Below are positions 1 to 12,891 of a stretch of DNA of 12,891 bases, piece by piece (the first letter of the stretch is position 1; the number at the start of each line of letters is the position of its first letter). A model generated the notes under the pieces. It had not been told where the DNA came from and ran no database searches. It worked only from the letters and a program-made list of their open reading frames with translations. The position numbers were made by a program, and so were the translations under genes. The stretch is from a virus: the UHGV virus genome UHGV-1804406. The stretch is one strand, 5' to 3'.

Positions 1-2615
1 TTTTCCTGTATATCTTTCGCCTGCTGCTCCAGCTCGTCGGCATGGTTTTTGATTTCGTCAGCCATGCCAGCAATTTTTTCATTGCTGTCCACTGCGCTCT
101 CAATCAGATCTTTAAACGTAGCGGAGTCTTTGATCTCCTCCAGGATCACATCGGTGATATCGGAAACATCGATGCTGGCCTGACCTCGCACCCAGTCGGT
201 ATACCCGGACTCGTTTCCCGTTCTGTCGACCAGTTGCGCGCGATACCAGAAAATCTGCCCTGCCTTAAGACCCATCTGCTGATATTTGCGCTGCGGATAA
301 GGCACATCGGCCAGCAGCATGGCATCGTCTTCAGTACCGGTCAGGCTGTACTGAATTTCCGTCTTCAGCGTGTCGTCGGTATTCGCCTGGAATCCCCAGT
401 TCAGCTCGATACCGAACACCACGTTTTCAGAGGCGATAAAGCCAACCGGCTTCGGTGGATTGCCCACTTTACCCGTCAGCGTTTTCTCTTCTGAATAGCC
501 CCATCCGGATGAAATTTCTGCGGCATTGATTGCGCGCACCCGCACCAGGTAACGCCCGGCATAAATCCCCGGGACGTCGAATGACGTGGTGGAGGTGCGC
601 GGCACGTTAACCCAGTTCCCGTCGTTGCGGCGCCATTGCGCTTCATAGGCGATAGCGTTCTGCGCCTGGTCCCAGCTCACGCGCATTGTTTCGACGCTGA
701 TATTTTGCTGAACCACGGAAAACGAGCTGATCACGATATTCGCAGGCGGCGACTGGTTGCCCGGCGGGATCACGCTCACCGGCCGTTGGTCAATGATGGC
801 TCCGGTATCGATACGGGCATATTTATCCGGGTCGTGCCATGCGCCGGTAATCGAGAAAGTGCCATCATTGTTATCGGAAACGCTGACAACACGATACTGC
901 TGCGCGTAAAGCTCGTCAGATTCAACCACCCAAACAGCTTCGGCCTGTGGCGTCTCACTGTATGCCGTGGTGACTGTGACTGATTCCCCGTTCACGGCCT
1001 GAATGGTCCTGCTCTGCGACGCTCCGGAAGGCAGGTTGAGAATAAGGCGATCACCTGGTGCTGCATCAGCTACGCGGTCAAGTTTGATAACGCGACCGTT
1101 AACGGCGCTGATGCGGCCGCCCATAACCTTTCCGGAAAGCAGCTCGTCTGCCACGGCGATGATGTAGCCCGGCTGCGGAATGTTTCCGTCCAGCCCGACA
1201 TCAAACGAAACAACGCGATCCTTGTTATTGGTGAGAATACCCCAGCGCCCCTTTCGGTTCGCCTCTGACTGCCTGGTGCAGCCGATGGCTGTCATTTCCA
1301 GCTGATTGAAGCCGTACCGCGCCACCAGCGCCTGCTCAAATACCGGCTCCATCGCGTCGGCATAAGCGTTACCCGGGTCTGACCATGAAACCAGCGCTGT
1401 GGTGTAGCGGCTTTTCGTGGTGCTGCTCGAATAGGTGAAGCGACCGCCAACAACGTTAGCGCGCGTATAGCTGTAATCAACATCGCGCGGCATGTCAGCC
1501 AGGGCCACAATCTGATCCCCGCCCCAGTAGGTCATGCCACGGAAGATAGCGGCAAAATCACGCAGGACTGTGTAGGCGTCGTTCCGGTCCTGAATGTACA
1601 CGTTGCAGGTATAGCGTGGTTCTGTACCGTTGCCCCCTTTGCCGTCTGGTACCATCTGATCACAATACTGAGCAACCTGATAAAGCGTCCATTTATCAAT
1701 ATTCGCAGCGGTCAAACGGTGCCCAAGGCCGAACCGGTCAGAAACAACCAGGTCGTAAAAAATCCACGCAGGGTTATCCGTCCATGCCCACTTAAACGCA
1801 CCGGTCCATGTACCGCTATAAGTGCGGGTTTCAGGGTCGTAGGTATCTGGAACGCGGATAACGCGGCCGCGCGGTTCGCATGAAATTTGAGGAATAGAGC
1901 CGTTGAACTGGCTTGAGTCGAATTCGACGTAGAGCAGCGCGGTGTTCGGGTAGCGCAGTTTGGCGTCAATCACCTCGGTGAAGCTCTGCAGCATCATCGT
2001 GTCGCCGATCTTCGCGCTGTTGGCGTCAGAGGTAATCTTACGCAGACGTATTGTCCATGTGCTGCCAGCCTGCGGTAAATCGATACGGTGGCTGCGCTCA
2101 TAACCAGACGTCGTTTTGCCGGTCACGCTGGTATTGAGTACCGTCTGCCATGTGCCGCCGTCAGTCTGCAGGTCAATCGCATAATTGACCGAGTAACCCA
2201 CCAGATCGCCGTCGTCTTCCTGTTTGAAAAGCGAGGGCCATTTAAGACGCAGGCGAACTGCTGAAAGCTGCGTATTGGTAAACGTGCGCGTCCAGGCTGT
2301 GGCACTTGATACCTCAGTTCCTACGCTGATCTCGTTTTCGGTACCGGGAATACCCTGAATATATTTTTGCGCCTGCGTTCCCGCGCGAAACTCCCACGTT
2401 ACCCCGCTGAAGTTTTGGGAGCCGTCAGCATTCTCCAGCGCTGTTCCGTCCAGGTAGATATCTTTGCCGGTGAGCTGTCCAGCAAACTCCCCTTCCCCAA
2501 GCGCAACGAGGATTTTTGCCTTCGCTACAGATTGCAGATCATCAGGCTGTTCGGTAGGGGTTCGGGAACTTGAGCTGCCGCCCTTGCGGCCTTTTAACAC
2601 TTTATCTGTAGCCAT
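1..2615 (-). CDS. J: Tail tip / host specificity protein J (central tail fibre), N-terminal ~871 codons; C-terminus lies beyond the window start
   Basis: Open minus-strand frame from ATG at 2615..2613 to the window edge (codons end at position 3); not in the ORF track because it runs off the window. Translation begins MATDKVLKGRKGGSSSSRTPTEQ and contains blocks such as YPNTALL..EFDSSQF and QYCDQMVPDGKGG..TEPRYTCNVY that match my recollection of lambda gpJ. It is in the expected position after I. Weak SD; in-frame stop 2651..2649 upstream rules out a longer N-terminus. Confidence 0.9.
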   Translation of the reverse strand, partial: MATDKVLKGRKGGSSSSRTPTEQPDDLQSVAKAKILVALGEGEFAGQLTGKDIYLDGTALENADGSQNFSGVTWEFRAGTQAQKYIQGIPGTENEISVGTEVSSATAWTRTFTNTQLSAVRLRLKWPSLFKQEDDGDLVGYSVNYAIDLQTDGGTWQTVLNTSVTGKTTSGYERSHRIDLPQAGSTWTIRLRKITSDANSAKIGDTMMLQSFTEVIDAKLRYPNTALLYVEFDSSQFNGSIPQISCEPRGRVIRVPDTYDPETRTYSGTWTGAFKWAWTDNPAWIFYDLVVSDRFGLGHRLTAANIDKWTLYQVAQYCDQMVPDGKGGNGTEPRYTCNVYIQDRNDAYTVLRDFAAIFRGMTYWGGDQIVALADMPRDVDYSYTRANVVGGRFTYSSSTTKSRYTTALVSWSDPGNAYADAMEPVFEQALVARYGFNQLEMTAIGCTRQSEANRKGRWGILTNNKDRVVSFDVGLDGNIPQPGYIIAVADELLSGKVMGGRISAVNGRVIKLDRVADAAPGDRLILNLPSGASQSRTIQAVNGESVTVTTAYSETPQAEAVWVVESDELYAQQYRVVSVSDNNDGTFSITGAWHDPDKYARIDTGAIIDQRPVSVIPPGNQSPPANIVISSFSVVQQNISVETMRVSWDQAQNAIAYEAQWRRNDGNWVNVPRTSTTSFDVPGIYAGRYLVRVRAINAAEISSGWGYSEEKTLTGKVGNPPKPVGFIASENVVFGIELNWGFQANTDDTLKTEIQYSLTGTEDDAMLLADVPYPQRKYQQMGLKAGQIFWYRAQLVDRTGNESGYTDWVRGQASIDVSDITDVILEEIKDSATFKDLIESAVDSNEKIAGMADEIKNHADELEQQAKDIQE

Positions 2616-2626
2616 ATTGCGCCCAT

Positions 2627-2649
2627 AAAAAAGCCACCCAAAGGTGGCT
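2627..2649 (-). terminator. Intrinsic-terminator-like hairpin on the minus strand, 11 nt upstream of the J start codon
   Basis: Plus strand reads AAAAAA-GCCACC-CAAA-GGTGGCT; on the minus-strand RNA this is AGCCACC-UUUG-GGUGGCU followed by a U tract of 5-6. Seven-bp stem 2632-2638/2643-2649. No T run follows on the plus strand, so it is unidirectional. Confidence 0.5.
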
Positions 2650-2780: not shown

Positions 2781-3041
2781 ATGGGTTCGATGTTAGAACT
2801 GGAAAAAGAAGTGGCAGAGCTTAAACAAAAGCTGCTTACGCATGAAATTGCAACTGGCCTGATTCTATCGGACATTGTGAAATTACTGGACATTGCCCGG
2901 CCAGGCGCACTCGATGCTCTGACTAAAAACTATCAGGCAGGGCAAGCAAAAATCCCAGAATCAGCTGCACGTAATGATCCGCACACAATTGATGCGTTCA
3001 CGCGCATCCTTAAAGTTTTAGAGGTGGCATCAAAGAAATAA
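2781..3041 (+). CDS. Hypothetical small protein (86 aa) with predicted N-terminal coiled-coil; the only plus-strand gene candidate, inside the I-J insert
   Basis: ATG at 2781 preceded by AAGGAG with a 6-nt spacer (aaaaAGGAGaagtaaATG). 86 codons, MGSMLELEKEVAELKQKLL... The segment looks AT-richer than the flanking tail genes by eye. No minus-strand ORF of any length covers it (stops in all three minus frames between 2650 and 3010). Function unknown. Confidence 0.55.
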   Translation: MGSMLELEKEVAELKQKLLTHEIATGLILSDIVKLLDIARPGALDALTKNYQAGQAKIPESAARNDPHTIDAFTRILKVLEVASKK

Positions 3042-3327
3042 TTAAATCGAGCTTTTCATTGAATATTTCTTCATGAGTTTTAGCGGCCTCATTCTGGGCC
3101 GCTGTTACCGTTCCACCGAAAACCCCTGCATCACCCTGCGAAATCTTTCCCTCCTTTACTCGCAAACTCCAGCCATTACCGGTGATGGTCGAATGAATAG
3201 CGCCACCTGGCCGTAGTGCGTTCTGAATGGCGGAATTGACGATTGCCGGGTTATGCAGCTCTGCTATCTCCACCTGCAGGCTCGCGATGGTTGCCTCAAG
3301 CATGCTCATGCGCTCTTCTAAAGTCAT
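3010..3327 (-). CDS. Hypothetical small protein (105 aa), N-terminal Leu/Glu-rich helix followed by a Gly-rich segment; lies between I and J in the late operon
   Basis: ATG at 3327..3325 preceded by AGGAGA (caggagaaaactATG), 37 nt downstream of the I stop. Translation MTLEERMSMLEATIASLQVEIAELHNPAIVNSAIQNALRPGGAIHSTITGNGWSLRVKEGK...LKL. The track's longer 184-aa form (to 3564) would overlap I out of frame and lacks an SD. Its 3' end overlaps the plus ORF convergently over 3010..3041. Confidence 0.5.
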   Translation of the reverse strand: MTLEERMSMLEATIASLQVEIAELHNPAIVNSAIQNALRPGGAIHSTITGNGWSLRVKEGKISQGDAGVFGGTVTAAQNEAAKTHEEIFNEKLDLIISLMPPLKL

Positions 3328-3364: not shown

Positions 3365-3955
3365 TTACTGTTGATCTTCGACATAAATCCCGGCAGAAAT
3401 AATCGCACCGCCGATTTGCCGACGACCATAAAGAAGCGGTACCGGATAGCCCTGCGCGGCGGTGTTGGTGACTCCACCGAACGCGTATGAGGCGCGGTTA
3501 TCTGAACTCTGTTTGCTGGCCAGCCCCGCTGGTTGAGGGGAAAGCATCTGAACAACCCCGCCAATCATCATTGCGGCACCGAATTTGTATAAGAATGGTG
3601 ATGCCGCAGCCCAGGGTGTGAAATTAAGCACCGCCCCAACGGCAACCAGAACTGCACCAAGTATTGTCTGGAGTAATCCGGCCTTTTTGCTCCCGATAAT
3701 CACCGGGACAATGCGAATGACATCGCCGGTGACCGGGTAACCCAGGTCATCAACACCAATATTCTTTTTCCCTTTGAATACTGAATAAGTGAGACCACGG
3801 CGTTGGCTGGAAATCATAAACTGCTCAAAGCCCGGTATAGTCTTTGCCAGCGCAACACTCGCTTCGTTCACGCGGGAAATCAGGCGATGGTGAACTTTAC
3901 CGAATGTTTTCCCGAGCACGCCGCCAAGCTCAATGCGGGTCATTACTTCCTGCAT
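3365..3955 (-). CDS. I: Tail assembly protein I
   Basis: 196-aa ORF in the lambda I position, directly after K. SD AGGTG upstream of ATG 3955. Start overlaps the K stop (TAA 3945..3943) by 13 nt; an alternative in-frame ATG at 3943 is possible. Confidence 0.8.
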   Translation of the reverse strand: MQEVMTRIELGGVLGKTFGKVHHRLISRVNEASVALAKTIPGFEQFMISSQRRGLTYSVFKGKKNIGVDDLGYPVTGDVIRIVPVIIGSKKAGLLQTILGAVLVAVGAVLNFTPWAAASPFLYKFGAAMMIGGVVQMLSPQPAGLASKQSSDNRASYAFGGVTNTAAQGYPVPLLYGRRQIGGAIISAGIYVEDQQ

Positions 3956-4675: not shown

Positions 4676-5431
4676 TCAGCTCCTGATAAGAGATGTACCG
4701 GGGAAACCGCCAAACGGCAGCTCGTTGCTGTCTCCGTGCCGGAGCTTGCAGGCCGTCAGCGTGCCGTTGCAGACATCCAGCGATGGATCGTCAACCGGAT
4801 TATTGTTTTTGTCGAAATAGCGCGTTCCGGCATAGTCGCAGCCGTCGCCGGTCCGGTACTTGTTCCGGATGCACCAGCTGCATAACGAATGCAGCTGCCG
4901 CGTGGGTATCATCTGGCCCTGTAAATCCATCGGACTGGAAAGCGTAAATTCAACAGATTCATCCGTCTCGGTGCTTCTGGCATCGATATAAAAGACCTTC
5001 AGCTTTTCCTGTGACGGGTCTGCAGTGGGATTGCCCTGCGGAAAATTTCTGGCGTCCAGATACTGTGCCAGCGTGTCGTGGATACTCACTTTCGCCTGCA
5101 GCAGATCGTCATACGCCAGACAGAGCGCTGAGATCGAGCTGTCCAGGTTCGCCACACTCAGTTTTGGCTGTGGACTGGTACCGTCCGTAGTCGCTTCAAT
5201 ACCCTCAACCTGACACGGCCAGGCTTTATACTCCTCCCCCTGCCACCAGATGGACTTCGCCGGAAGTTTATTCTCATCCCCGCCTGCAGCCTCAATCTCT
5301 TCCGGGGTATGCGCGATATTATGTGCGTGGAAGCGGAGTACATCTGACATACCGAACGCTGTGCCATCGACAGAAAAAAGCCGGACTTCATTGCCCGGCT
5401 CGAGTTTTTGATAATCAGCATTAAGACTCAT
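4676..5431 (-). CDS. L: Minor tail protein L (Cys-rich, lambda gpL-like)
   Basis: 251-aa ORF. Its ATG (5431..5429) overlaps the M stop (5430..5428) in an ATGA arrangement, indicating translational coupling. C-terminal Cys cluster (CSWC...C...C...C) as in lambda gpL, which binds an Fe-S cluster. Confidence 0.85.
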   Translation of the reverse strand: MSLNADYQKLEPGNEVRLFSVDGTAFGMSDVLRFHAHNIAHTPEEIEAAGGDENKLPAKSIWWQGEEYKAWPCQVEGIEATTDGTSPQPKLSVANLDSSISALCLAYDDLLQAKVSIHDTLAQYLDARNFPQGNPTADPSQEKLKVFYIDARSTETDESVEFTLSSPMDLQGQMIPTRQLHSLCSWCIRNKYRTGDGCDYAGTRYFDKNNNPVDDPSLDVCNGTLTACKLRHGDSNELPFGGFPGTSLIRS

Positions 5432-5780: not shown

Positions 5781-8297
5781 TTACCTGCGATTGTTCGCAT
5801 TCCAGATAAGCCCACCGGGCTGGATTGCCCTGGCGATACCATCGTTGACAGATTTGTTAATCACCTGCTGATACGCCTTACCCAGCCTGTCTCCGTCATT
5901 TTGCTGCTGTGCGCCACCGGAGGCATTCTCGACGGTCACAGGCGCGTACACGCTCACCCCGAAAGGTGCTGCAGCGGGACCTGTGCCACTGCCCCCGACA
6001 AGCCCTCCTGTGGCGTACCCTTTCATCATCCGGTAAAGGTTGCCGACGCCGATCCGACTGGTAGCCTCTTTGGTGAAAACAAATTCGCCACGGTGAACGA
6101 CACCTGCGGGTTCATATTTCCCACCCGAACCGGTGAATCCCCCGCTGGCAAACCCCAGCGCCGTGGAGGCTGAATCTACCAGTCCGGTCATTGCCTGCTT
6201 CAGCAGAATTTGTGTCAGCATGGAGAGCGTGGAGCGGGTAAAGTCAGCCCAGTCAGCCTTTCCGCGTGTCAGCATGTCTGCCATATTCTGCCCGATGCCA
6301 TCAAACGTACTGGTGGCAACCGACTTCATCTGGCCATAAGCATCTGAAGCGGAATCAACATAATCTGCCCATGCGGATTTGGCCCCGGATTGCCAGTCGT
6401 CCCGCAGCTTATCCTGCTCGGCGTAATACGCCTGCAGCGCCTGCAGCTCATTCTGATAACCAGCGTCGTTCTCCGAACCGCCACCATTTTTCCAGCCCTG
6501 AAGAAGCTGGTCCTCCTCATTGCGGCGTTGTGCTGCACGACTGCTCATACCAGCACTTTCCGCAAGGGCTCGGGTTTTCTCGCCGATCTGCGTGACGTAT
6601 TTTTGGGACGTATCCTGCAGGCGGTTAAGCCGCTCCTGCGCCACTATCTGATCGCCAAGCTTCGCATTCAGCTCCGCACGGGAAAGCACCTCACTTTTAC
6701 TGGCCAGCAGGGATTTTTCCTCAGCAGAAAGCGTTCGGGTCTTCGCGGCCTCTTCCAGAACCGTAAAGCGGGACTGCTGACGCCACAGCTCCTGACGCTG
6801 CTGGCTGATGGTGTCATTGATGCTCTTATGCTCCTGCAGGGTGCGCAGCTGTGTCTGTAGCTCCAGCGTCTGGGCACTGGCCGTATCGGTGGCACGGGCA
6901 CCTGCGGGGGTTCTGATTGCCGGGGTCTTCTTCGGCTTTTTAAGGGTGTCTTCGTACTCTTTTTTCGCGGCAGCCAGGTTGATGTTGTAGTCAGCCTGGA
7001 GGATCCGCCCCTCTTTCAGCGCCTTGTTGAGCTCGCTCTGCCTGGCCGTGTATTTCTCCAGTGCCGTCTGCGTTTTGGCATAGTTTGCCTGTGCCTGCGC
7101 AGCATACTTCTGGCGATCCGATTCCGCAGCCGCTTCGCGCGATGCATTCTCTTCGTTCGCCCTGGCAATTCCCGCCTGCTGCTGCGCCATATCCAGCGCA
7201 AGCCTGGCCGTTTCGCGGTCATTCCAGAATCGGGCGCGAGCCTCATCATTGACATATCGGTCACCTTTACGCAGGTTCCAGATTTCATCAGCTTTTTTGA
7301 ACGCGGCTTCGGCTTTTGCCACCATCTCCTGCGCGGTGTCAGGTCGGCCAATATCGAGGGCTGCATCCCACATCGACTTGAAGGCGCGCTTCAGGGAGTC
7401 CGCTGAAGACTCTATCGTCCCCATATTGTCGCGGATGGCTTTGGTCTGATCGTTGAATCCGGCTGTAGCCGCCTCGTTAGCCGCCTGCAGTGCGCCAGCC
7501 TCATCACCGGCACGCTGCAGCTGCGCCACATGGGCAATCTGTTCTGCGGTAACGTTATGGAACTGCTGGGCCATCGCGATCAGGCCCGATGTCGGGTCAG
7601 TTGCGAGCTTGCCGTAGGCTGCAGCGACTTTCTCCACCGGCACGCCGGAGGCATCAGTAAACCGCGCCACCGCCTGGCTCATTTCATCAAAGCGCGAGCC
7701 AGTACGCACACCTGCATTGATAAGCTCGGTCAGGGCTTCACTGGTCTGGTTGAACGTTAGCCCCGCTGCCTGTCCGTTCCGCGCCAGTGCCAGCATGCGG
7801 TCAGCTGTCAGTCCGGCTGTGTTCCCCGACAGTACCAGCGTTTTGTTGAAATCAGACAGAGTGGAAGAGCCCTGGTACCAGGCATAGAACAACGCGCCCG
7901 TTGCAACGGACAATGCACCAATGCCGACCATCAACGGGGAAATCGTCCCCAGTAACGCCCGGAATGTCGGAATGATCCCGCCAAAGGAGTCCTTAACCTG
8001 ACCGCCCTGCTGAAGCAGAATCAGCCAGGGGTTCTGCCCACCCGCCAGCTGCGTAGCCACGTCAGTAAACTGCGCCGGGAGCATACGCATCGCTGCGTTA
8101 TACTGACCCACTGAAATACCGGCCTTACGCGCGGCGTTCTCCTGGCGGCTAAAGGACTGCTGGATCCGTAGCGCTTCGTCGTTCGCCGCGCTGCCAGTCT
8201 GCTTTAATTCTTTTTTGACGTAGTTAAGCTGCTCGTTAAATTTCGTCGAGTTAACGTCAAGGTTAACGACCAGATCACCCACTGCCGTCTGGGCCAT
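5781..8297 (-). CDS. H: Tail tape measure protein H
   Basis: 838-aa ORF with SD AGGAGG. Long colinear blocks match recalled lambda gpH (GISVGQYNAAMRMLPAQFTDVATQLAGGQNPWLILLQQGGQVKDSFGG; C-terminal GGKYEPAGVVHRGEFVFTKEATSRIGVGNLYRMMKGYATGG). Central region is Ala/Gln/Glu-rich and helical. Start overlaps the T-frame 3' end by 23 nt. Confidence 0.95.
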   Translation of the reverse strand: MAQTAVGDLVVNLDVNSTKFNEQLNYVKKELKQTGSAANDEALRIQQSFSRQENAARKAGISVGQYNAAMRMLPAQFTDVATQLAGGQNPWLILLQQGGQVKDSFGGIIPTFRALLGTISPLMVGIGALSVATGALFYAWYQGSSTLSDFNKTLVLSGNTAGLTADRMLALARNGQAAGLTFNQTSEALTELINAGVRTGSRFDEMSQAVARFTDASGVPVEKVAAAYGKLATDPTSGLIAMAQQFHNVTAEQIAHVAQLQRAGDEAGALQAANEAATAGFNDQTKAIRDNMGTIESSADSLKRAFKSMWDAALDIGRPDTAQEMVAKAEAAFKKADEIWNLRKGDRYVNDEARARFWNDRETARLALDMAQQQAGIARANEENASREAAAESDRQKYAAQAQANYAKTQTALEKYTARQSELNKALKEGRILQADYNINLAAAKKEYEDTLKKPKKTPAIRTPAGARATDTASAQTLELQTQLRTLQEHKSINDTISQQRQELWRQQSRFTVLEEAAKTRTLSAEEKSLLASKSEVLSRAELNAKLGDQIVAQERLNRLQDTSQKYVTQIGEKTRALAESAGMSSRAAQRRNEEDQLLQGWKNGGGSENDAGYQNELQALQAYYAEQDKLRDDWQSGAKSAWADYVDSASDAYGQMKSVATSTFDGIGQNMADMLTRGKADWADFTRSTLSMLTQILLKQAMTGLVDSASTALGFASGGFTGSGGKYEPAGVVHRGEFVFTKEATSRIGVGNLYRMMKGYATGGLVGGSGTGPAAAPFGVSVYAPVTVENASGGAQQQNDGDRLGKAYQQVINKSVNDGIARAIQPGGLIWNANNRR

Positions 8298-9026
8298 AGC
8301 GCACGCCTCCTGAAATACCTGCAGCCTTCGCCATCAGCGTATCGTCATCCGGCTCATCAACGTCGATGCTTTCCGATACAGGGGAAAGGATGCTGAAACT
8401 GTCCGGTGTTAATTCCGGATCAGCAAAAAACAGGGTTGAGATGGTGTAGAGCAAACCGGAGAAATGAGCATCCAGCTGCGCATCATGAAAGTAATTGTCC
8501 TGGTAGAAGATTTTCCAGTCGCCGTATTCCGTTGAGGACATGCCAGCAAGCATGGCACGCCAGTCCGGGCGACCGAACTCACGCGCCAGTTTCATGGCAA
8601 ACTTCAGCTCACTGGCGAGGGCTTTTCCGCAGTAACAGGTTCAGCGGGTTCATTACGTTCTTCACCGGGCTCAGCCTGGTCATCAGTGACCGGCGCAATC
8701 ATCCCGGACAGGAGTTTCACCTTATATTCGGCTTCGGCAACAAGTTCGGTCGGCCATGTCTGCATGACCTCATCCTGAATCTGCTCCACTTCCGCCGCCG
8801 CGTTTTCTCCCTGCGATCCTTTAAGCGCGTGGCCATGCCAGAGTGACATTGCCACCAGATATGCTCCACTCTTCACGGTAAGGGTAATGGCAGCCTGAAA
8901 ATCACCAGCTTCAACCGCCTCAAGTTGTTTCAGGTATTCGAGGTATTCAATACGCTGCAGCGCCGACAGCTGGAACAATGTGACGCTGCTGCCGTTACTT
9001 TCAAGCAGCTCGCTCTTTAGAAACAT
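8275..9026 (-). CDS. T: Tail assembly chaperone G-T, inferred -1 programmed-frameshift fusion (G frame shifting into the T frame near 8622..8628)
   Basis: The downstream ORF (stop 8277..8275) is in the -1 frame relative to G and is open only from 8640 on the mRNA, so the shift must occur between 8640 and 8604. The T-frame translation ...KLAREFGRPDWRAMLAGMSSTEY... matches the recalled lambda gpT region. The heptamer present is G GAA AAG. Confidence 0.7.
8604..9026 (-). CDS. G: Tail assembly chaperone G
   Basis: 140-aa ORF, MFLKSELLESNGSSVTLFQLSALQRIEYL... with VAMSLWHGH and C-terminal PAEPVTAEKPSPVS resembling lambda gpG. SD GGAG 4 nt upstream of the ATG. Confidence 0.9.
   Translation of the reverse strand: MFLKSELLESNGSSVTLFQLSALQRIEYLEYLKQLEAVEAGDFQAAITLTVKSGAYLVAMSLWHGHALKGSQGENAAAEVEQIQDEVMQTWPTELVAEAEYKVKLLSGMIAPVTDDQAEPGEERNEPAEPVTAEKPSPVS
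8622..8628 (-). promoter_or_regulatory. Candidate -1 ribosomal frameshift slippery heptamer G-GAA-AAG (mRNA sense), six codons before the G stop
   Basis: Plus strand cttttcc is GGAAAAG on the mRNA. It occupies the same position relative to the end of G as lambda's G GGA AAG (recalled) and is the only slippery-like site in the permitted window. Confidence 0.5.
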
Positions 9027-9042
9027 AATTACTCCGGGGGAA

Positions 9043-9058
9043 CGGGGCTTTCGCCCCG
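9043..9058 (-). promoter_or_regulatory. GC-only stem-loop (CGGGGC-GAAA-GCCCCG on the mRNA) between the V stop and the G Shine-Dalgarno
   Basis: Six G:C pairs with a GAAA tetraloop, 4 nt after the V stop codon; not followed by a U tract. Confidence 0.5.
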
Positions 9059-9062
9059 GTTA

Positions 9063-9800
9063 TCAGGAAACAGTGACTTTGCAGATCGCCACAAAGTTAC
9101 CGTCATTGCTCATTACGATGATCTCGACGGTGCCTGCCGCCACGCCGGTAACAGTCAGGGTATTGCCGCTGACGGTGACCGTTGCTTTTGACGGATCAGA
9201 ACTGGCTACGCGGAAAGACTTATCTGAAGCACTTGCTGGCAGGACAGAAACAACCAGTTGCGTCGTGGCCGCGACAGCCACAGCCGCCGTGGATTTATCC
9301 AGGCTGATCCCCGTAACGGCAATCGGCGCGGTACCACTGTCTTCGGCCAGCGATGGTTTGCCATTGTTGGTGATTTTTGCCGTGCGGGTCATGACCTCTT
9401 TAGACGAGATGGTCTTGCCGAGACTGCTCACCCAGCCCTTAAAGACATCGACAACACCATTCGGATATTTGATTTTATACCCCTTCACGGTGCCTTCATC
9501 GAACCAGTTCACCAGGTCCTGCTGACCGGAATCCTCCGGCATCCATGCGAGCGTCAGGTTGGTTTCACCGGCTGATTTCTGCCCCTGCATGGTTGATGTC
9601 CAGTCAGCATTCTCATCATCGATGTAGGTATCATCCTCAGATTCGGCGGTCAGTTCACCGGGCTGCAGGTCTTTAATCTTTGCCAGACGCAGCCAGTCAA
9701 CATCTGAAAGCGGGTTGGCATAAGGGTCACCGGTTCCGGTGTAAACCCATAGGGTGGTACCAGCACCTTTTGTTGGTGCCAGCGGGTTTGGTGTGGCCAT
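9063..9800 (-). CDS. V: Major tail protein V with C-terminal Ig-like (Big_2-type) domain
   Basis: 245-aa ORF with [46 protein letters not shown] and KSAG...TLAWMP blocks match recalled lambda gpV. C-terminal Ser/Thr/Val-rich beta-like segment. Confidence 0.9.
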
Positions 9801-9807
9801 AGGGTCC

Positions 9808-10206
9808 TCACATGTCGTAAGTAATGGAATATTTCAGGTCGGCAGAACTCCACAGCGCCATATCGTCATCGCGCTGGTAGTCATAACCCTGCTGAACCAT
9901 TGTGGTGATAAGGGATTCAAGACCCGGAACCTCTGCGAGAACCGGATACACCCGCGTTTCCATCCAGTCATCCAGATCAGAATCAGGCACCTGAGCCCCA
10001 AGAAAGACTTCGATATGCAGAATGGCCTGCCAGCTGTCTGCATCCAGTTCTTCCCCGGTGTATTCCGCATCTGTCAGATAGACGGCTACAGCAGGGAAAT
10101 CTTCCTCTTCGAGCACTGCAGGCCTGCCGTCAAAATAAATGGCGTCAGTACCAATCGCGCTTTCAAGCGCGTCAATAATTACCTTGCGGATATCGCTGTG
10201 TTTCAT
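9808..10206 (-). CDS. U: Tail terminator protein U
   Basis: 132-aa ORF; FDGRPAV...[20 protein letters not shown] and LHIEVFL.AQVPDS.LD.WME blocks resemble lambda gpU. Its ATG (10206..10204) overlaps the Z stop (10205..10203) as ATGA. Confidence 0.9.
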
Positions 10207-10757
10207 CGTGTCAGAATGAGCCTGAGTTGGTTGGTAAGGGATGCCCGGAGCTCTTTGGGCATATCCGACTCCATAAGCTTCGGCAGTTCTTCTTTAAATG
10301 CCGTAGTTAACGGAGCTGCCAGCGGGATGCTGACTACTTCAATGGGATAACGGGGTTTTGACGTTCGCCTCATGACGTGCCAGCGGCCATTTTTAAGCTG
10401 CTGGATGAAACCACCCGGAAAACGGAACGGCCCTATGCGCAGAACGCTGTTGGCCCCTTTCTTATCCCTTTTTCTGCGGGAAAGGCGCACGCTTGCAGTG
10501 CCGAGTTTTATGGCCGGTAAATTTCCCCGGTTCACCCGGATAAGCGCACGGGGCTTATTGACCGTCGCACGCTTCACTCTGGCGCGTTGCTTTACCAGCT
10601 TTCTCGGTACGCGGGTGTCTTTTGATACGACCGCAACGCTACGGCTGACAGCACGGTTTGCCACGCGGTTAACGGCCTGCGCCGACGCACGCGGGACAGC
10701 CGTTTTGCTGATGCTGTTAAGGTTCTCTATGGCCTGCTCAAGGCCTTTTATCGACAT
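10203..10757 (-). CDS. Z: Tail completion protein Z
   Basis: 184-aa basic ORF, M.IKGLEQA.ENL..ISKTAVP...FIQQLKNGRWHVM, lambda gpZ-like. SD AAGGAG 5 nt upstream; the FII stop (10769..10767) sits inside that SD. Confidence 0.9.
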   Translation of the reverse strand: MSIKGLEQAIENLNSISKTAVPRASAQAVNRVANRAVSRSVAVVSKDTRVPRKLVKQRARVKRATVNKPRALIRVNRGNLPAIKLGTASVRLSRRKRDKKGANSVLRIGPFRFPGGFIQQLKNGRWHVMRRTSKPRYPIEVVSIPLAAPLTTAFKEELPKLMESDMPKELRASLTNQLRLILTR

Positions 10758-10766
10758 AGGCGCTCC

Positions 10767-11120
10767 TTAACGGCGACGCGAGGAAGGTGGAGCAGAGCCG
10801 TTACCCAGCCAGATATGACAGGAACCACAGTCATCCGGATCGATACGATCAACCCAGAATGACCGGCCGTTAATCGTCAGGGTGTCCATACGCTGCAGCT
10901 GGCTGACAGTGGAGGTTTCAACAAACAGTGTCGGGCTGGTACCTTCAACACGGATCCCCGCTCCCGCATAACCAATGTTTTCTGGATCATCAAAGACACC
11001 GACCAGCGTGATGCCAGACAATGCGCCTGACATCACCTTTGCCTCTGTGCCCATCACACTGCGGATAGTGCCATCAGCTCGCGACATGGCCTCATCAAAG
11101 AGATTATCGAAATCAGCCAT
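10767..11120 (-). CDS. FII: Head-tail joining protein FII
   Basis: 117-aa ORF, MADFDNLFD...GVFDDPENI.YAG.G.RVEG.SP.LFV...FWVDR..PDD.GSCH.WLG...RRR, matching recalled lambda gpFII including length. SD AGGGGG. Confidence 0.9.
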   Translation of the reverse strand: MADFDNLFDEAMSRADGTIRSVMGTEAKVMSGALSGITLVGVFDDPENIGYAGAGIRVEGTSPTLFVETSTVSQLQRMDTLTINGRSFWVDRIDPDDCGSCHIWLGNGSAPPSSRRR

Positions 11121-11130
11121 GCGGCCCCCT

Positions 11131-11547
11131 TCAGACTTCGCGAGCCAGCCCCTTTGCGATCAGCTCATCGGCATCCTGTTCGGATACGCGGATAATCACT
11201 CCGGGCTCAACGATGGATACCGGTTCGTTACGCGTGGCATGCAGCGCGTCAACATGCAGGGTAGCCAGCGTTTCTACTGATACCCGGTCATCCGTTGTGA
11301 CCGATTCCGTTTTTACTTTTGCCACGTTAGCAACATTGTTGTCGGTGCTGTCGGTGCTGTCGGTGCTGTCGGAAGCATTCTGCACGCCGTTTTCACCGTC
11401 AACTGACCCGGCATTGCCATCCAGTTCCTCTTCAAGCTCAGCAATACGCATCGTCAGTTCCTGAATGGTGCCACTGGTACTGACCTCGCGGTTAAGCTGG
11501 GTCCCAAGTTCATTCAGGCGGTCGACCAGCTTTTCTTTTTCTGTCAT
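11131..11547 (-). CDS. FI: DNA-packaging / head assembly protein FI (two domains joined by a Ser/Thr/Asp-rich linker)
   Basis: Start chosen at ATG 11547 (MTEKEKLVDRLNELGTQLNREV..., resembling the lambda gpFI N-terminus) with SD GGAG upstream. The track's longer start (11583) would place translation through the post-E stem-loop. C-terminal LHVDALHATRNEPV motif conserved. Confidence 0.85.
   Translation of the reverse strand: MTEKEKLVDRLNELGTQLNREVSTSGTIQELTMRIAELEEELDGNAGSVDGENGVQNASDSTDSTDSTDNNVANVAKVKTESVTTDDRVSVETLATLHVDALHATRNEPVSIVEPGVIIRVSEQDADELIAKGLAREV
11341..11372 (-). repeat. Perfect 9-bp tandem repeat (gtcggtgct x3 plus a partial copy) encoding (S-T-D)n in the FI linker
   Basis: Plus strand 11341..11367 is three identical 9-mers followed by gtcgg; it translates on the minus strand as DSTDSTDSTD. 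Confidence 0.9.
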
Positions 11548-11565
11548 GGGAAATACTCCAGAAAG

Positions 11566-11583
11566 GTGGCCCGACAGGGCCAC
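11566..11583 (-). promoter_or_regulatory. Stem-loop (GUGGCCC-UGUC-GGGCCAC on the mRNA) between the E stop and the FI Shine-Dalgarno
   Basis: Seven-bp stem 11566-11572/11577-11583 with a 4-nt loop, 10 nt after the E stop codon; no U tract. Confidence 0.5.
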
Positions 11584-11592
11584 TGGGGGAAG

Positions 11593-12618
11593 TTATGCCA
11601 GTTTGACGGAGACGAATGCGTCAGGGTCTGGCAGCAGCATCAGCGGAGCTGACTGAATCATGGTGAATTCGCGCGCCGGATCCCCCGACTGCACCCAGTT
11701 TTTCGGGTAGCGTGTCGAGGCATTGATACCTTCGCGCTGGGCATCAGCATCAAGAATGCAGCCATAGGTACGCAGGCCACGAGCCTGGGTATTCCCCAGC
11801 ACCATTGTCAGGTCCGGCAGATAATTCTTTTTGACGTCGTTTTCGACGTACTGGCCGGAGTACACCACGATGGCCACATCGCCAAACATCCCCTTGTATG
11901 AAACAGCCATACCCAGGTCTTTCACGGCAGTTTCCAGCTCAGAGTTAGAACCACGACGCGTATCCAGCTTCTTCTCAACAGCCTTGAAGGAACGGAACAG
12001 CGCCCAGCCTTTCGGATCGAACACAATGATGTTGACCACACCGCTGGCGTTGAGCGCGTAGGCTTCAATGTCATCGGTCGGGTCATACGTTTCTTTGTCG
12101 CGGGTTGACCATGCAGCCGCACCGGCCTGGACAATGTTGTTACCAGCGCTGCGGCCCATATCGACTTCAACAGGCTCGAACGCTTCCCCGGTCATGGTGT
12201 ATTTACCGCTGAGCACCGCCGAAACAGCCTGTTTCTCTTCGACCTGAGCAATCGCCAGCTCTTCATCCTTCATGTTCTGAAGGATAATGCGGCGACGGCG
12301 ATAGACCGGGTCAGCGAGATTCTGCGGATCCTCATCCGGCAGGCGGCGGAGAGTCATCAGTGGGTTAACTTCGTGTTTCGGCTTCACATAACCCGGCGTG
12401 AATTCAGACGTGCTGCCGCCACGGGAGCGGATCACTTTGCCGGAGACAATCGGCGAGACGTAAAGCGCCATATTGACCAGGCCAGGAATTTGCGACAGGT
12501 AAACCTTCTCTGTACTGAAGGGATAGGTTTCGCGGAAAAAGATACGCAGGAAAAGCGGATCGAATTTGAATTTCTTCTCATTGACCGCCAGCAGTTGGGC
12601 AGTGGTGTAAACGGACAT
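11593..12618 (-). CDS. E: Major capsid protein E
   Basis: 341-aa ORF, the same length as lambda gpE, with long near-identical blocks from memory (YTTAQLLA.NE.KFKFDPLFLR.FFRE.YPF.TEKVYLSQIPGLVNMALYVSPIVSG.VIRSRGGSTSEFTPGYVKPKHEVNP; NTQARGLRTYGCI.DADAQREGINAS.RYPKNWV..GDPAREFTMIQSAPLMLL). Confidence 0.95.
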   Translation of the reverse strand: MSVYTTAQLLAVNEKKFKFDPLFLRIFFRETYPFSTEKVYLSQIPGLVNMALYVSPIVSGKVIRSRGGSTSEFTPGYVKPKHEVNPLMTLRRLPDEDPQNLADPVYRRRRIILQNMKDEELAIAQVEEKQAVSAVLSGKYTMTGEAFEPVEVDMGRSAGNNIVQAGAAAWSTRDKETYDPTDDIEAYALNASGVVNIIVFDPKGWALFRSFKAVEKKLDTRRGSNSELETAVKDLGMAVSYKGMFGDVAIVVYSGQYVENDVKKNYLPDLTMVLGNTQARGLRTYGCILDADAQREGINASTRYPKNWVQSGDPAREFTMIQSAPLMLLPDPDAFVSVKLA

Positions 12619-12631
12619 AGATTTTTCCCGT

Positions 12632-12655
12632 AAAAAAAGCCGCGCAAGCGGCTTT
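12632..12655 (-). terminator. Terminator-like hairpin in the D-E intergenic region (A7-GCCGC-GCAA-GCGGC-T4 on the plus strand; hairpin followed by U7 on the minus-strand RNA)
   Basis: GC stem 12639-12643/12648-12652 extended by A:U pairs and flanked by an A run upstream and T run downstream, so it is terminator-like in both orientations. Lies between the D stop (12686) and the E start (12618). Confidence 0.45.
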
Positions 12656-12685
12656 TATGAATGATGATGGTTGTAGAAATGCGGA

Positions 12686-12891
12686 TTAAACGATGCTGAT
12701 TGCAGTACCGGCGAACGCGTTACGTTTAATGTTGCCGTCGGTGACGGCAGATGGCCAGAGGACATCTTCAATACGGAAAGAGCCAGATTTGTAATATGCC
12801 AGTTCCGCGCTGTTCTGGTCTGCGGTTACAGCCAGGATGCCCATTGCCGCGCCAGCATGAGCACCATCCCAGACGGTCAGCTTGCCAGAAG
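12686..12891 (-). CDS. D: Head decoration protein D, C-terminal ~67 codons; N-terminus lies beyond the window end
   Basis: Minus-strand frame open from the window end to TAA at 12688..12686. Translation ...[65 protein letters not shown] resembles the recalled lambda gpD C-terminus, and it sits immediately upstream of E. Confidence 0.85.

Follow-up and report, generated by a model that had tools for sequence, protein, structure and literature searches.

From one transcript, a phage has to produce capsid and tail-tube subunits by the hundred but only a few copies of its other proteins, and how far such ratios depend on control at the RNA level is a matter of debate. The window, the whole stretch of 12,891 nucleotides from the virus genome UHGV-1804406 analysed here, raises this question in a concrete form: it had been predicted to carry stem-loops behind its three high-copy genes (D, E and V), but not at its other junctions, a pattern read as stoichiometry control written into the operon. 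Such control is a reasonable hypothesis. We ask here how far the pattern holds, whether the hairpins are maintained among relatives and which role best accounts for them.

Four hairpins in the late operon

The window corresponds to the late operon, for head and tail, of a lambda-like prophage, read from the minus strand (Table 1). The phage is not lambda, which the original prediction had used as its frame: in nucleotide comparisons, the closest relatives were mEp237 and N15 (92-97% identity; 96% for mEp237 and 92% for N15), and lambda matched at about 80%, over D-E only. The three predicted hairpins were found on the minus (mRNA) strand, in the D-E, E-FI and V-G gaps (67, 45 and 36 nt, respectively). 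All the remaining junctions of the conserved operon overlap or span no more than 10 nt, and the hairpins fill the only sizeable untranslated gaps of the operon. However, a fourth hairpin (hereafter referred to as pre-J), of 7 bp and absent from the original list, lies 11 nt ahead of the J start codon, so the prediction of no such structures elsewhere in the operon is wrong. A hairpin is thus present 3' of all three high-copy genes, versus only one of the 10 others (hypergeometric P ~0.014). The association with D, E and V therefore holds in the window, but the gene ahead of the pre-J hairpin, I, is a low-copy one, and lambda does without the V-G hairpin.

Table 1. Genes and hairpins of the window, in order of transcription.
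Feature	Position	Strand	Description	Sequence or match
D	12686..12891	-	Head decoration gene, 3' part, cut by the window end	Pfam HDPD, E = 1.2e-13
D-E hairpin and U-tract	12656..12632	-	Canonical intrinsic-terminator shape; D stop 12686, E start 12618; U-tract ends 13 nt 5' of the E start codon	AAAA-GCCGC-UUGC-GCGGC-UUUUUUU
E	11593..12618	-	Major capsid gene, 341 aa, hairpin on each side	Pfam Phage_cap_E, E = 9.8e-65
E-FI hairpin	11583..11566	-	7 bp; E stop 11593, FI start 11547	GUGGCCC-UGUC-GGGCCAC
FI	11131..11547	-	DNA packaging chaperone	Pfam Packaging_FI
V	9063..9800	-	Major tail tube gene, 245 aa	Pfam Phage_TTP_12 and Big_2
V-G hairpin	9058..9043	-	Six G:C pairs; V stop 9063, G start 9026	CGGGGC-GAAA-GCCCCG
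G	8604..9026	-	Tail assembly chaperone gene	Pfam Phage_TAC_2
I	3365..3955	-	Tail assembly gene, last conserved gene ahead of the pre-J hairpin	100% identical to mEp237 I
Pre-J hairpin and U-tract	2649..2627 (stem-loop 2649..2632)	-	Canonical terminator shape	AGCCACC-UUUG-GGUGGCU-UUUUU
J	1..2615	-	Tail tip gene, 5' part, runs off the window	93% identical to mEp237 J

All four hairpins have the stem of an intrinsic terminator, with 5-7 G:C-rich pairs, a 4-nt loop and a local energy between -12.7 and -14.4 kcal/mol (D-E, -13.1; E-FI, -14.4; V-G, -13.4; pre-J, -12.7). A tract was considered U-rich if it contained about ≥5 U in the 8 nt directly 3' of the stem. The D-E stem is followed by U7 and the pre-J stem by U5 and then A. 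The E-FI stem has 4/8 U (CUUUCUGG), and the sequence 3' of it, CUUUCUGGAG, is a weak U-tract merging into the FI Shine-Dalgarno sequence; the V-G stem has 2/8 U (UUCCCCCG) and is followed by UUCCCCCGGAG, with no U-tract. The D-E and pre-J elements therefore look like intrinsic terminators (GC stem, tetraloop, U5-7), and the E-FI and V-G hairpins are putative U-poor versions of them in the window's lineage. Two other classes of element were rejected. There was no match to the REP consensus at up to three mismatches, and each hairpin sequence is distinct, which disposes of REP/BIME elements. A T7-type RNase III site is an irregular duplex of about ≥20 bp, whereas the stems here have only 5-9 bp, and relatives do not share the longer flanking helices that folding predicts for the window.

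Stability and placement

The stability of the hairpins is not unique, but their placement in gaps is, because comparable or stronger hairpins exist within coding sequence (5402..5377 at -16.0 and 11034..11009 at -15.3 kcal/mol). When all the non-overlapping 26-nt hairpins in the 12.9-kb transcript were ranked by energy, E-FI came 4th, V-G 9th and D-E 11th. The observed energy was equalled by 3/300 shuffled gaps for D-E, 5/300 for E-FI and 8/300 for V-G, the hairpins thus beating 97-99% of shuffles, and by 16/400, 2/400 and 3/400 coding segments of the same length, respectively. Folding of 80-nt segments at every junction gave z-scores of -1.25 (D-E), -2.44 (E-FI), -0.28 (V-G) and -0.76 (pre-J). 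Of the ten remaining junctions, nine scored between +0.1 and +2.4, and FII-Z reached -1.16. Taken as whole junctions, the hairpin sites are thus only modestly unusual.

The modest whole-junction scores and the equally stable hairpins inside coding regions would fit chance palindromes, or recombination scars without function. The joint chance of the three gaps, calculated as the product of the coding-segment frequencies on the assumption of independence, is nevertheless ~1e-6, and the comparative data described below also count against such an origin.

Conservation among relatives

The comparison set comprised about 100 related loci, with counts made by distinct junction sequence. Of the 54 distinct D-E junction sequences, 98% carried the hairpin. 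The E-FI hairpin was present in 47/47 and the pre-J hairpin, between two low-copy genes, in all 48 distinct I-J junctions, from 78/78 loci. The V-G hairpin was found in only 26 of the 39 distinct V-G junction types (67%); V is still the tail-tube protein in the 13 types from which it is missing. Lambda has the D-E, E-FI and I-J hairpins, but none in its V-G gap, which is 15 nt long. Orthologous junctions thus bear out the predicted pattern at D-E and E-FI, but not consistently at V-G. No hairpins were found at the 13 other junction types in relatives, at which the gaps are all ≤13 nt. Placement in the gap 3' of the more abundant cistron, as for a stabiliser, describes D, E and V, but not low-copy I, nor V in lambda.

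The stems are invariant or covary, whereas the loops vary freely (the V-G loop may be GAAA, UGUG, GUGA, UUCG or others). In the D-E alignment, 96.4% of cells were paired, 12 were changed on both sides and the covariation score was matched by 0/500 shuffles, with an invariant core and covarying outer pairs. The outer pairs of E-FI also covary (score matched by 9/500 shuffles). These two alignments together contain 28 G·U and zero A·C pairs, which places the constraint on the mRNA. The patterns show clear purifying selection on the D-E and E-FI hairpins.

In the 60 nt upstream of E, 77 of 83 distinct sequences had a compact hairpin, as did 73 of 87 in the 60 nt downstream; coding windows contained one at a rate of 14.6%. 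Among relatives with an E protein no more than 45% identical to that of the window, the corresponding counts were 32/38 and 28/38; the hairpins flanking the capsid gene are thus kept even where the capsid proteins are only ~40% identical, and in distant clades non-homologous hairpins occupy the same positions. Presence in 98-100% of relatives, free loops, compensatory stem changes and this recurrence of unrelated hairpins effectively refute chance palindromes, and a functionless origin is barely credible.

The U-tracts are also conserved among relatives (U7 after D-E, U5-7 after pre-J). Full U-tracts follow E-FI or V-G in several relatives (L077, L131, L113, L124 and L078), including a U6-8 tract after E-FI in the first three.

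Spacing to the downstream gene

The distance from stem to start codon had a median of 20 nt at D-E (19-28), 20 nt at E-FI (19-26) and 17 nt at V-G (16-19). Its standard deviation was 1.4-1.9, versus 3.1-5.1 for the distance from stop codon to hairpin (20-42 nt from stop to stem at D-E). This tight spacing on one side and variable spacing on the other point at least equally to the downstream gene. A stable hairpin about 20 nt 5' of the start codon, with a U-tract at E and J, might keep the ribosome-binding site unpaired from upstream coding RNA, give ribosomal protein S1 a U-rich place to land, or shield processed E (or FI, G or J) messages from RNase E at their 5' end. The same spacing is found in distant clades, and the Shine-Dalgarno sequences of E and J are weak and come straight after the U-tract. 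At I-J, inserts of 317-879 nt are in every case on the 5' side of the hairpin, leaving it beside the J start, and one locus without a D gene (L133) still has a hairpin upstream of E. However, this last hairpin is ~150 nt from the E start, a V-G junction without a hairpin works in lambda, and a translational booster would not be expected for low-copy J. The constant spacing may also simply be the minimum room required by a ribosome-binding site after a terminator, and we consider a role on behalf of the downstream gene rather unlikely.

A narrower proposal concerns the D-E core, G(C/U)CGC-N3-5-GCGGC with its U-tract. All enteric relatives keep this core unchanged to the letter, and it is found again in locus L245, in several marine loci and in the majority of Pseudomonas-clade loci, the capsid proteins of which are only ~40% identical to that of the window. 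It always ends ~20-25 nt ahead of the capsid start codon. Beyond the capsid gene, by contrast, the stem of the hairpin is wholly different from clade to clade. It is conceivable, although decidedly improbable, that D-E is a sequence-specific cis-element for capsid expression, as a recognition site for a protein or the ribosome or as a 5' stabiliser of a processed message.

The combination of a GC hairpin and a U7 tail is also the standard Hfq-binding module, and termination at D-E might release a small Hfq-binding RNA carrying the 3' end of D, as at tL2a in the early left operon of lambda, from which LPR1/PreS arises in just this way (bioRxiv 10.1101/2024.10.31.621285). An Hfq-dependent small RNA derived from the 3' end was nevertheless rejected as a candidate, as the U-tail is accompanied by no conserved upstream seed: the spacer 5' of the hairpin, which would hold the seed, is the most variable part of the junction. 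The section consulted of the lambda RIL-seq study describes three Hfq-bound small RNAs (LPR1/PreS, LPR2 and 6S), none at D-E, and an Rfam search of the window yielded no match. We regard this possibility as very remote.

Possible roles as read-through terminators or insulators

The most likely role, to which we assign a probability of about 45%, is that of terminators which polymerase reads through and which, in addition, hold up 3' exonucleases. The existence, placement, conservation and RNA-level constraint of the hairpins are shown by the data above, whereas the ending of transcripts at them, the stabilisation of message and any influence on protein ratios are inferred. By analogy with lambda, the late operon would be one long transcript, made by an antitermination-modified (Q-type) RNA polymerase. 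The modified polymerase would pass the hairpins, with perhaps a small fraction terminating. Where a transcript ended at a hairpin, or was cut downstream of it, the hairpin would stop 3'-to-5' exonucleases, and the upstream segments (to D, to E and to V) would outlive the remainder. The outcome would be a modest bias at the mRNA level on top of larger differences in translation initiation, which, as Sampson and colleagues reportedly concluded in 1988, accounts for most of the variation in expression among the late genes of lambda. Polymerase not modified by Q would halt at the two full terminators, D-E and pre-J. As the Q-modified enzyme is largely terminator-resistant, the step-downs may be tiny. 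A gradient generated by successive terminators cannot explain the low-copy genes nu1, A, W and B, which lie upstream of all the hairpins, and the position of pre-J after a low-copy gene and the dispensability of V-G in lambda also count against this reading.

The hairpins might instead be pure insulators, stopping non-Q polymerase (stray or moron-driven, in a lysogen) from expressing capsid and tail genes, with no part in lytic ratios. The U-tracts of D-E and pre-J are conserved and canonical, whereas an exonuclease block needs none, and the pre-J hairpin lies downstream of inserted accessory cassettes, the transcripts of which it would end. Against this, E-FI and V-G are conserved though they have no usable U-tract in the window's lineage, there is no evident need for insulation on both sides of E across clades, and the genes that pose a danger, those for lysis, lie upstream of all these sites in a prophage, going by the lambda map. 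Insulation is an option raised for phage L (PMC8022706), and Tn916 is a described case of terminator insulators used together with processive antitermination (PMC11658703). Insulation alone nevertheless appears unlikely. Whichever role applies, the hairpins flanking a capsid gene of only ~40% protein identity and the constant pre-J terminator are clean targets for mutation and 3'-end mapping.

Comparison with known systems

The hairpins belong to the lambdoid class of late-operon stem-loops known from HK97, P22 and lambda, and their positions match sites annotated in HK97, P22 and mEp237. In HK97 (NC_002167), putative terminators are annotated right after the major head gene gp5 (GGGCGGG-GAAA-CCCGCCC-UUUU) and right after the major tail gene (GCCGGG-UUGU-CCCGGC, with no U-tract), and the annotated pre-J terminator (AGCCACC-UUUG-GGUGGCU-U6) has the same hairpin sequence as that of the window. 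HK97 differs in having an unrelated capsid gene family and no D gene, and in having further annotated terminators, one behind the portal gene and one ahead of the major tail gene, both absent from the window. In P22 (NC_002371), a stem-loop (GGGGCU-GCG-GCCCCU, followed by UUCUUUAUGGAG) is annotated in the gap after coat gene 5, with the remark 'similar in location to stem-loops in phage HK97 and phage lambda'; the positional pattern had therefore already been recognised. P22 is, however, a podovirus with another capsid family and a single such site annotated in its late operon. In mEp237 (NC_019704, 5938..5958), within a region 96% identical to the window, the direct homologue of the D-E hairpin is annotated as a rho-independent terminator, and the E-FI and V-G hairpins of that phage are unannotated. 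Phage L belongs to another, P22-like, phage group, but, like the window, has a predicted terminator inside a late operon with one promoter and antitermination, placed where the procapsid gene block ends; partial termination or the blocking of non-antiterminated transcription was offered as an explanation, with the statement that the roles are not known (PMC8022706).

In T7, gal and mal, strongly expressed cistrons are followed by a hairpin that increases the upstream message relative to the downstream one. The mal example is the malE-malF REP stabiliser, reportedly described by Newbury and colleagues in 1987. Inefficient terminators balance expression in T7 (PMC9163698), and in E. coli gal ~10% of transcription stops behind the first cistron (PMC9239205). 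These systems differ from the window in having no Q-type antiterminated polymerase, and the window's hairpins are not REP elements. They are no new kind of element, but real and conserved members of a class that has long been annotated publicly.

The operon and its gap hairpins

All the long reading frames of the window lie on the minus strand, in the order of the lambda late genes: D (cut by the window end), E, FI, FII, Z, U, V, G/T, H, M, L, K, I and J. The identities of D, E, FI, V and G were confirmed with Pfam. The DNA is 96-97% identical to that of phages Phi06_2987 and mEp237, 93% identical to that of HK225 and 92% identical to that of N15. The match to lambda DNA is confined to D-E, at about 80% identity, and the phage is therefore a close cousin of lambda rather than lambda itself. 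Prophages related to this phage occur commonly in the genomes of E. coli.

The mRNA-strand sequence contains a hairpin in each of the D/E, E/FI and V/G gaps (neighbouring genes in mRNA order), exactly at the positions first proposed; the remaining conserved-gene junctions of the window overlap or have gaps of ≤10 nt. A scan of the full 12.9-kb transcript with a sliding 26-nt frame ranked the D/E, E/FI and V/G hairpins 11th, 4th and 9th by energy, respectively; stronger hairpins were found within L, FII and other genes. In local hairpin tests, each gap hairpin was more stable than 97-99% of sequences shuffled by dinucleotide and than 96-99.5% of coding segments matched in length. Whole-junction values (80-nt folds) were less striking, with z-scores of -1.25 (D/E), -2.44 (E/FI) and -0.28 (V/G); nine of the ten other junctions fell between +0.1 and +2.4, with FII/Z at -1.16. 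Such z-scores separate poorly, and the local tests were used in their place. The distinctive feature is a compact hairpin sited in the gap, not overall stability. The D/E hairpin was absent from the output of a terminator scan of the window; this is likely to be a tool artefact rather than counter-evidence, because, on our reading, the stem is extended through A:U pairs, leaving less tail to be scored.

Hairpins, cassette genes and repeat located in the window
Feature	Position	Strand	Sequence or product	Remarks
D/E hairpin	12656..12632	mRNA (minus)	AAAA-GCCGC-UUGC-GCGGC-U7	gap 67 nt
E/FI hairpin	11583..11566	mRNA (minus)	GUGGCCC-UGUC-GGGCCAC	gap 45 nt
V/G hairpin	9058..9043	mRNA (minus)	CGGGGC-GAAA-GCCCCG	gap 36 nt
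Pre-J hairpin	2649..2627	mRNA (minus)	AGCCACC-UUUG-GGUGGCU then U5	11 nt 5' of J start
Hairpin within L	5402..5377	minus	GAGCCGGGC-AAUGAA-GUCCGGCUU then U5	-16 kcal/mol, terminator-like
Hairpin within J	2590..2577		GCCGC-N4-GCGGC	at codons of conserved peptide GRKGG
Repeat within FI	11340..11372		TGTCGGTGC x 3.7	in-frame 9-nt tandem repeat
Two-gene cassette	2781..3327			between I stop (3365) and pre-J hairpin
Cassette gene 1	3327..3010	minus	105 aa, PHROG 22477	function unknown
Cassette gene 2	2781..3041	plus	86 aa, PHROG 23209	function unknown

Conservation among related loci

Four collections of loci were used, with junctions placed by protein alignment: 80 viral contigs (E 91-100% identical), lambda, 52 loci from species-representative genomes and 41 loci surrounding an E protein of the Pseudomonas type. 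A hairpin was counted at -9 kcal/mol or better. Hairpins were present in 98% of 54 distinct D/E sequences, 100% of 47 E/FI sequences and 67% of 39 V/G sequences. None was found in the relatives at nu1/A, A/W, W/B, B/C, C/D, FI/FII, FII/Z, Z/U, U/V, H/M, M/L, L/K or K/I, where gaps are ≤13 nt. Lambda has hairpins at D/E, E/FI and I/J, at approximate lambda positions 6097-6122, 7163-7180 and 15463-15482; its V/G gap is 15 nt long, without a hairpin, and is one of the 13 of 39 V/G junction types from which the hairpin is missing. Two further types carry unrelated hairpins (one a flipped stem, the other a full terminator). Loops vary freely among the V/G types, ruling out a conserved GNRA tetraloop.

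The other junctions had been described as devoid of such structures, which is incorrect, because a fourth hairpin lies in the I/J gap, 5' of the J start (hereafter referred to as the pre-J hairpin). In a separate scan with gene I (78 loci, 48 distinct I/J junctions), GCCACC-N4-GGUGGC followed by U5-7 was present in all 48, with constant spacing to the J start. The gap was either 50-54 nt long or contained an insert of 317, 600, 749 or 879 nt, invariably 5' of the hairpin. The rule that hairpins occur only after D, E and V is incomplete, given the pre-J hairpin and the optional status of V/G. The cassette in the window I/J gap has convergent reading frames, the 3' ends of which share a 32-nt overlap.

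The pattern extends to distant relatives. In six marine gammaproteobacterial and pseudomonad prophages, in which E is just 39-44% identical to that of the window, a hairpin was found 5' of E in all six and 3' of E in at least four; the Pseudomonas-type clade has the same pattern around E. Strict hairpins (perfect stem of ≥6 bp, ≥4 G:C pairs, loop of 3-8 nt) occurred in 77 of 83 distinct 60-nt stretches upstream of E and 73 of 87 downstream, against a background of 14.6% of 60-nt coding windows. For relatives with E ≤45% identical, the counts were 32/38 upstream and 28/38 downstream. The stems downstream of E differ wholly from clade to clade. The D/E stem core is conserved in sequence across clades with capsids about 40% identical (the window, 12632..12656, and related loci L124, L127, L133, L215-L236 and L245), a recurrence not accounted for by structural selection alone.

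Short contigs (L096-L111, L114, L117, L119-L123 and other loci) were also found in many “genomes” of unrelated taxa, including Bradyrhizobium, Kitasatospora, an Akkermansia MAG and Enterococcus, several with near-1x coverage in their names. Their E is 88-89% identical to that of the window, as is that of lambda (89%), and they are very likely to be lambda DNA contaminating the assemblies.

Selection on RNA structure

In the D/E alignment, 96.4% of cells were paired and the five core pairs were invariant, save for a C-to-U change keeping a wobble pair; the three outer pairs alternate between A-U, G·U and G-C, and the loop varies freely. The covariation score was reached by none of 500 shuffles. 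At E/FI, the GGCCC/GGGCC core does not vary among enteric relatives; covariation is seen in the two outer pairs, with a score reached by nine of 500 shuffles. The paired non-Watson-Crick cells of these two alignments comprised 28 G·U and no A·C on the mRNA strand, which places the constraint on the sense RNA rather than on DNA or antisense RNA. All three hairpins are real and non-random, with strong conservation, and a chance origin is highly improbable.

Other hairpins lie within genes. That in L is the strongest local hairpin of the entire transcript; it is kept in about half of 37 distinct L variants, one of which has a G-C to U-A double synonymous change, and lost in others coding for the identical peptide. 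GCCGC-N4-GCGGC occurs twice in the window (0.03 copies expected by chance), and its second exact copy, inside J, is missing in a clade with other codons for GRKGG. The L and J hairpins go with the codons used for conserved peptides and have been lost from some clades; both are probably coding by-products. For the FI repeat, match lengths among the listed related loci differ by multiples of 9 nt, suggesting that this 3-residue repeat varies in copy number.

Element type and possible function

The D/E and pre-J hairpins have a complete intrinsic-terminator shape, including a conserved U-tract and an A-run upstream. The E/FI hairpin is followed in the window's lineage by CUUUCUGG, with a 4-nt deletion in the alignment relative to the longer U-rich tract retained in other relatives, in some of which the tail is U6-8. 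The V/G hairpin of the window has no U-tract. An Rfam search of the whole window at E-values up to 1 gave no RNA family match, and the REP consensus had no match at the hairpins. Release of a small RNA from a hairpin is very improbable, and the section consulted of the lambda Hfq RIL-seq report (bioRxiv 10.1101/2024.10.31.621285) gave no support for such an RNA from the D 3' end.

The spacing of the stems bears on whether they serve the start region of the downstream gene. Stem-to-start distances are tight (medians of 20, 20 and 17 nt at D/E, E/FI and V/G; sd 0.6-1.9), and stop-to-stem distances are loose (sd 5.1 at D/E, 3.1 at E/FI). In the window fold, the E stop-codon region pairs with the FI Shine-Dalgarno/start region around the hairpin (z = -2.44). 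Some V/G variants show comparable pairing, ACUUCC:GGAGU. A clamp coupling translation of FI to that of E was nonetheless rejected, because the E/FI pairing is not conserved: the consensus fold of 16 diverse E/FI junctions retained only the core hairpin. A role in the downstream start region is, overall, unlikely.

We tentatively favour, with a probability of about 0.45, hairpins acting as terminators that would mostly be read through by the polymerase, and that might double as barriers to 3' exonucleases, the outcome being a modest bias at the mRNA level. Pure insulation against unmodified polymerase appears slightly less probable than a role at the downstream start; for phage L, partial termination or a halting of transcription without antitermination has been suggested (PMC8022706). 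Weak terminators have been cited as balancing expression in T7 (PMC9163698), and intercistronic termination is documented in the gal operon (PMC9239205). Stoichiometry control by the gap hairpins is plausible, if unproven.

Comparison with known systems

The mEp237 record labels the homologue of the D/E hairpin a rho-independent terminator. The HK97 record places putative terminators directly 3' of the major head gene, directly 3' of the major tail gene and ahead of J, where the hairpin is identical in sequence to the pre-J hairpin of the window. The P22 record has a stem-loop 3' of the coat gene, [quoted passage not shown]. Given these annotations and the published suggestions, both the hairpins as observed and the reading proposed for them count as established in the field, and the hairpins belong to a class recognised by annotators for years.
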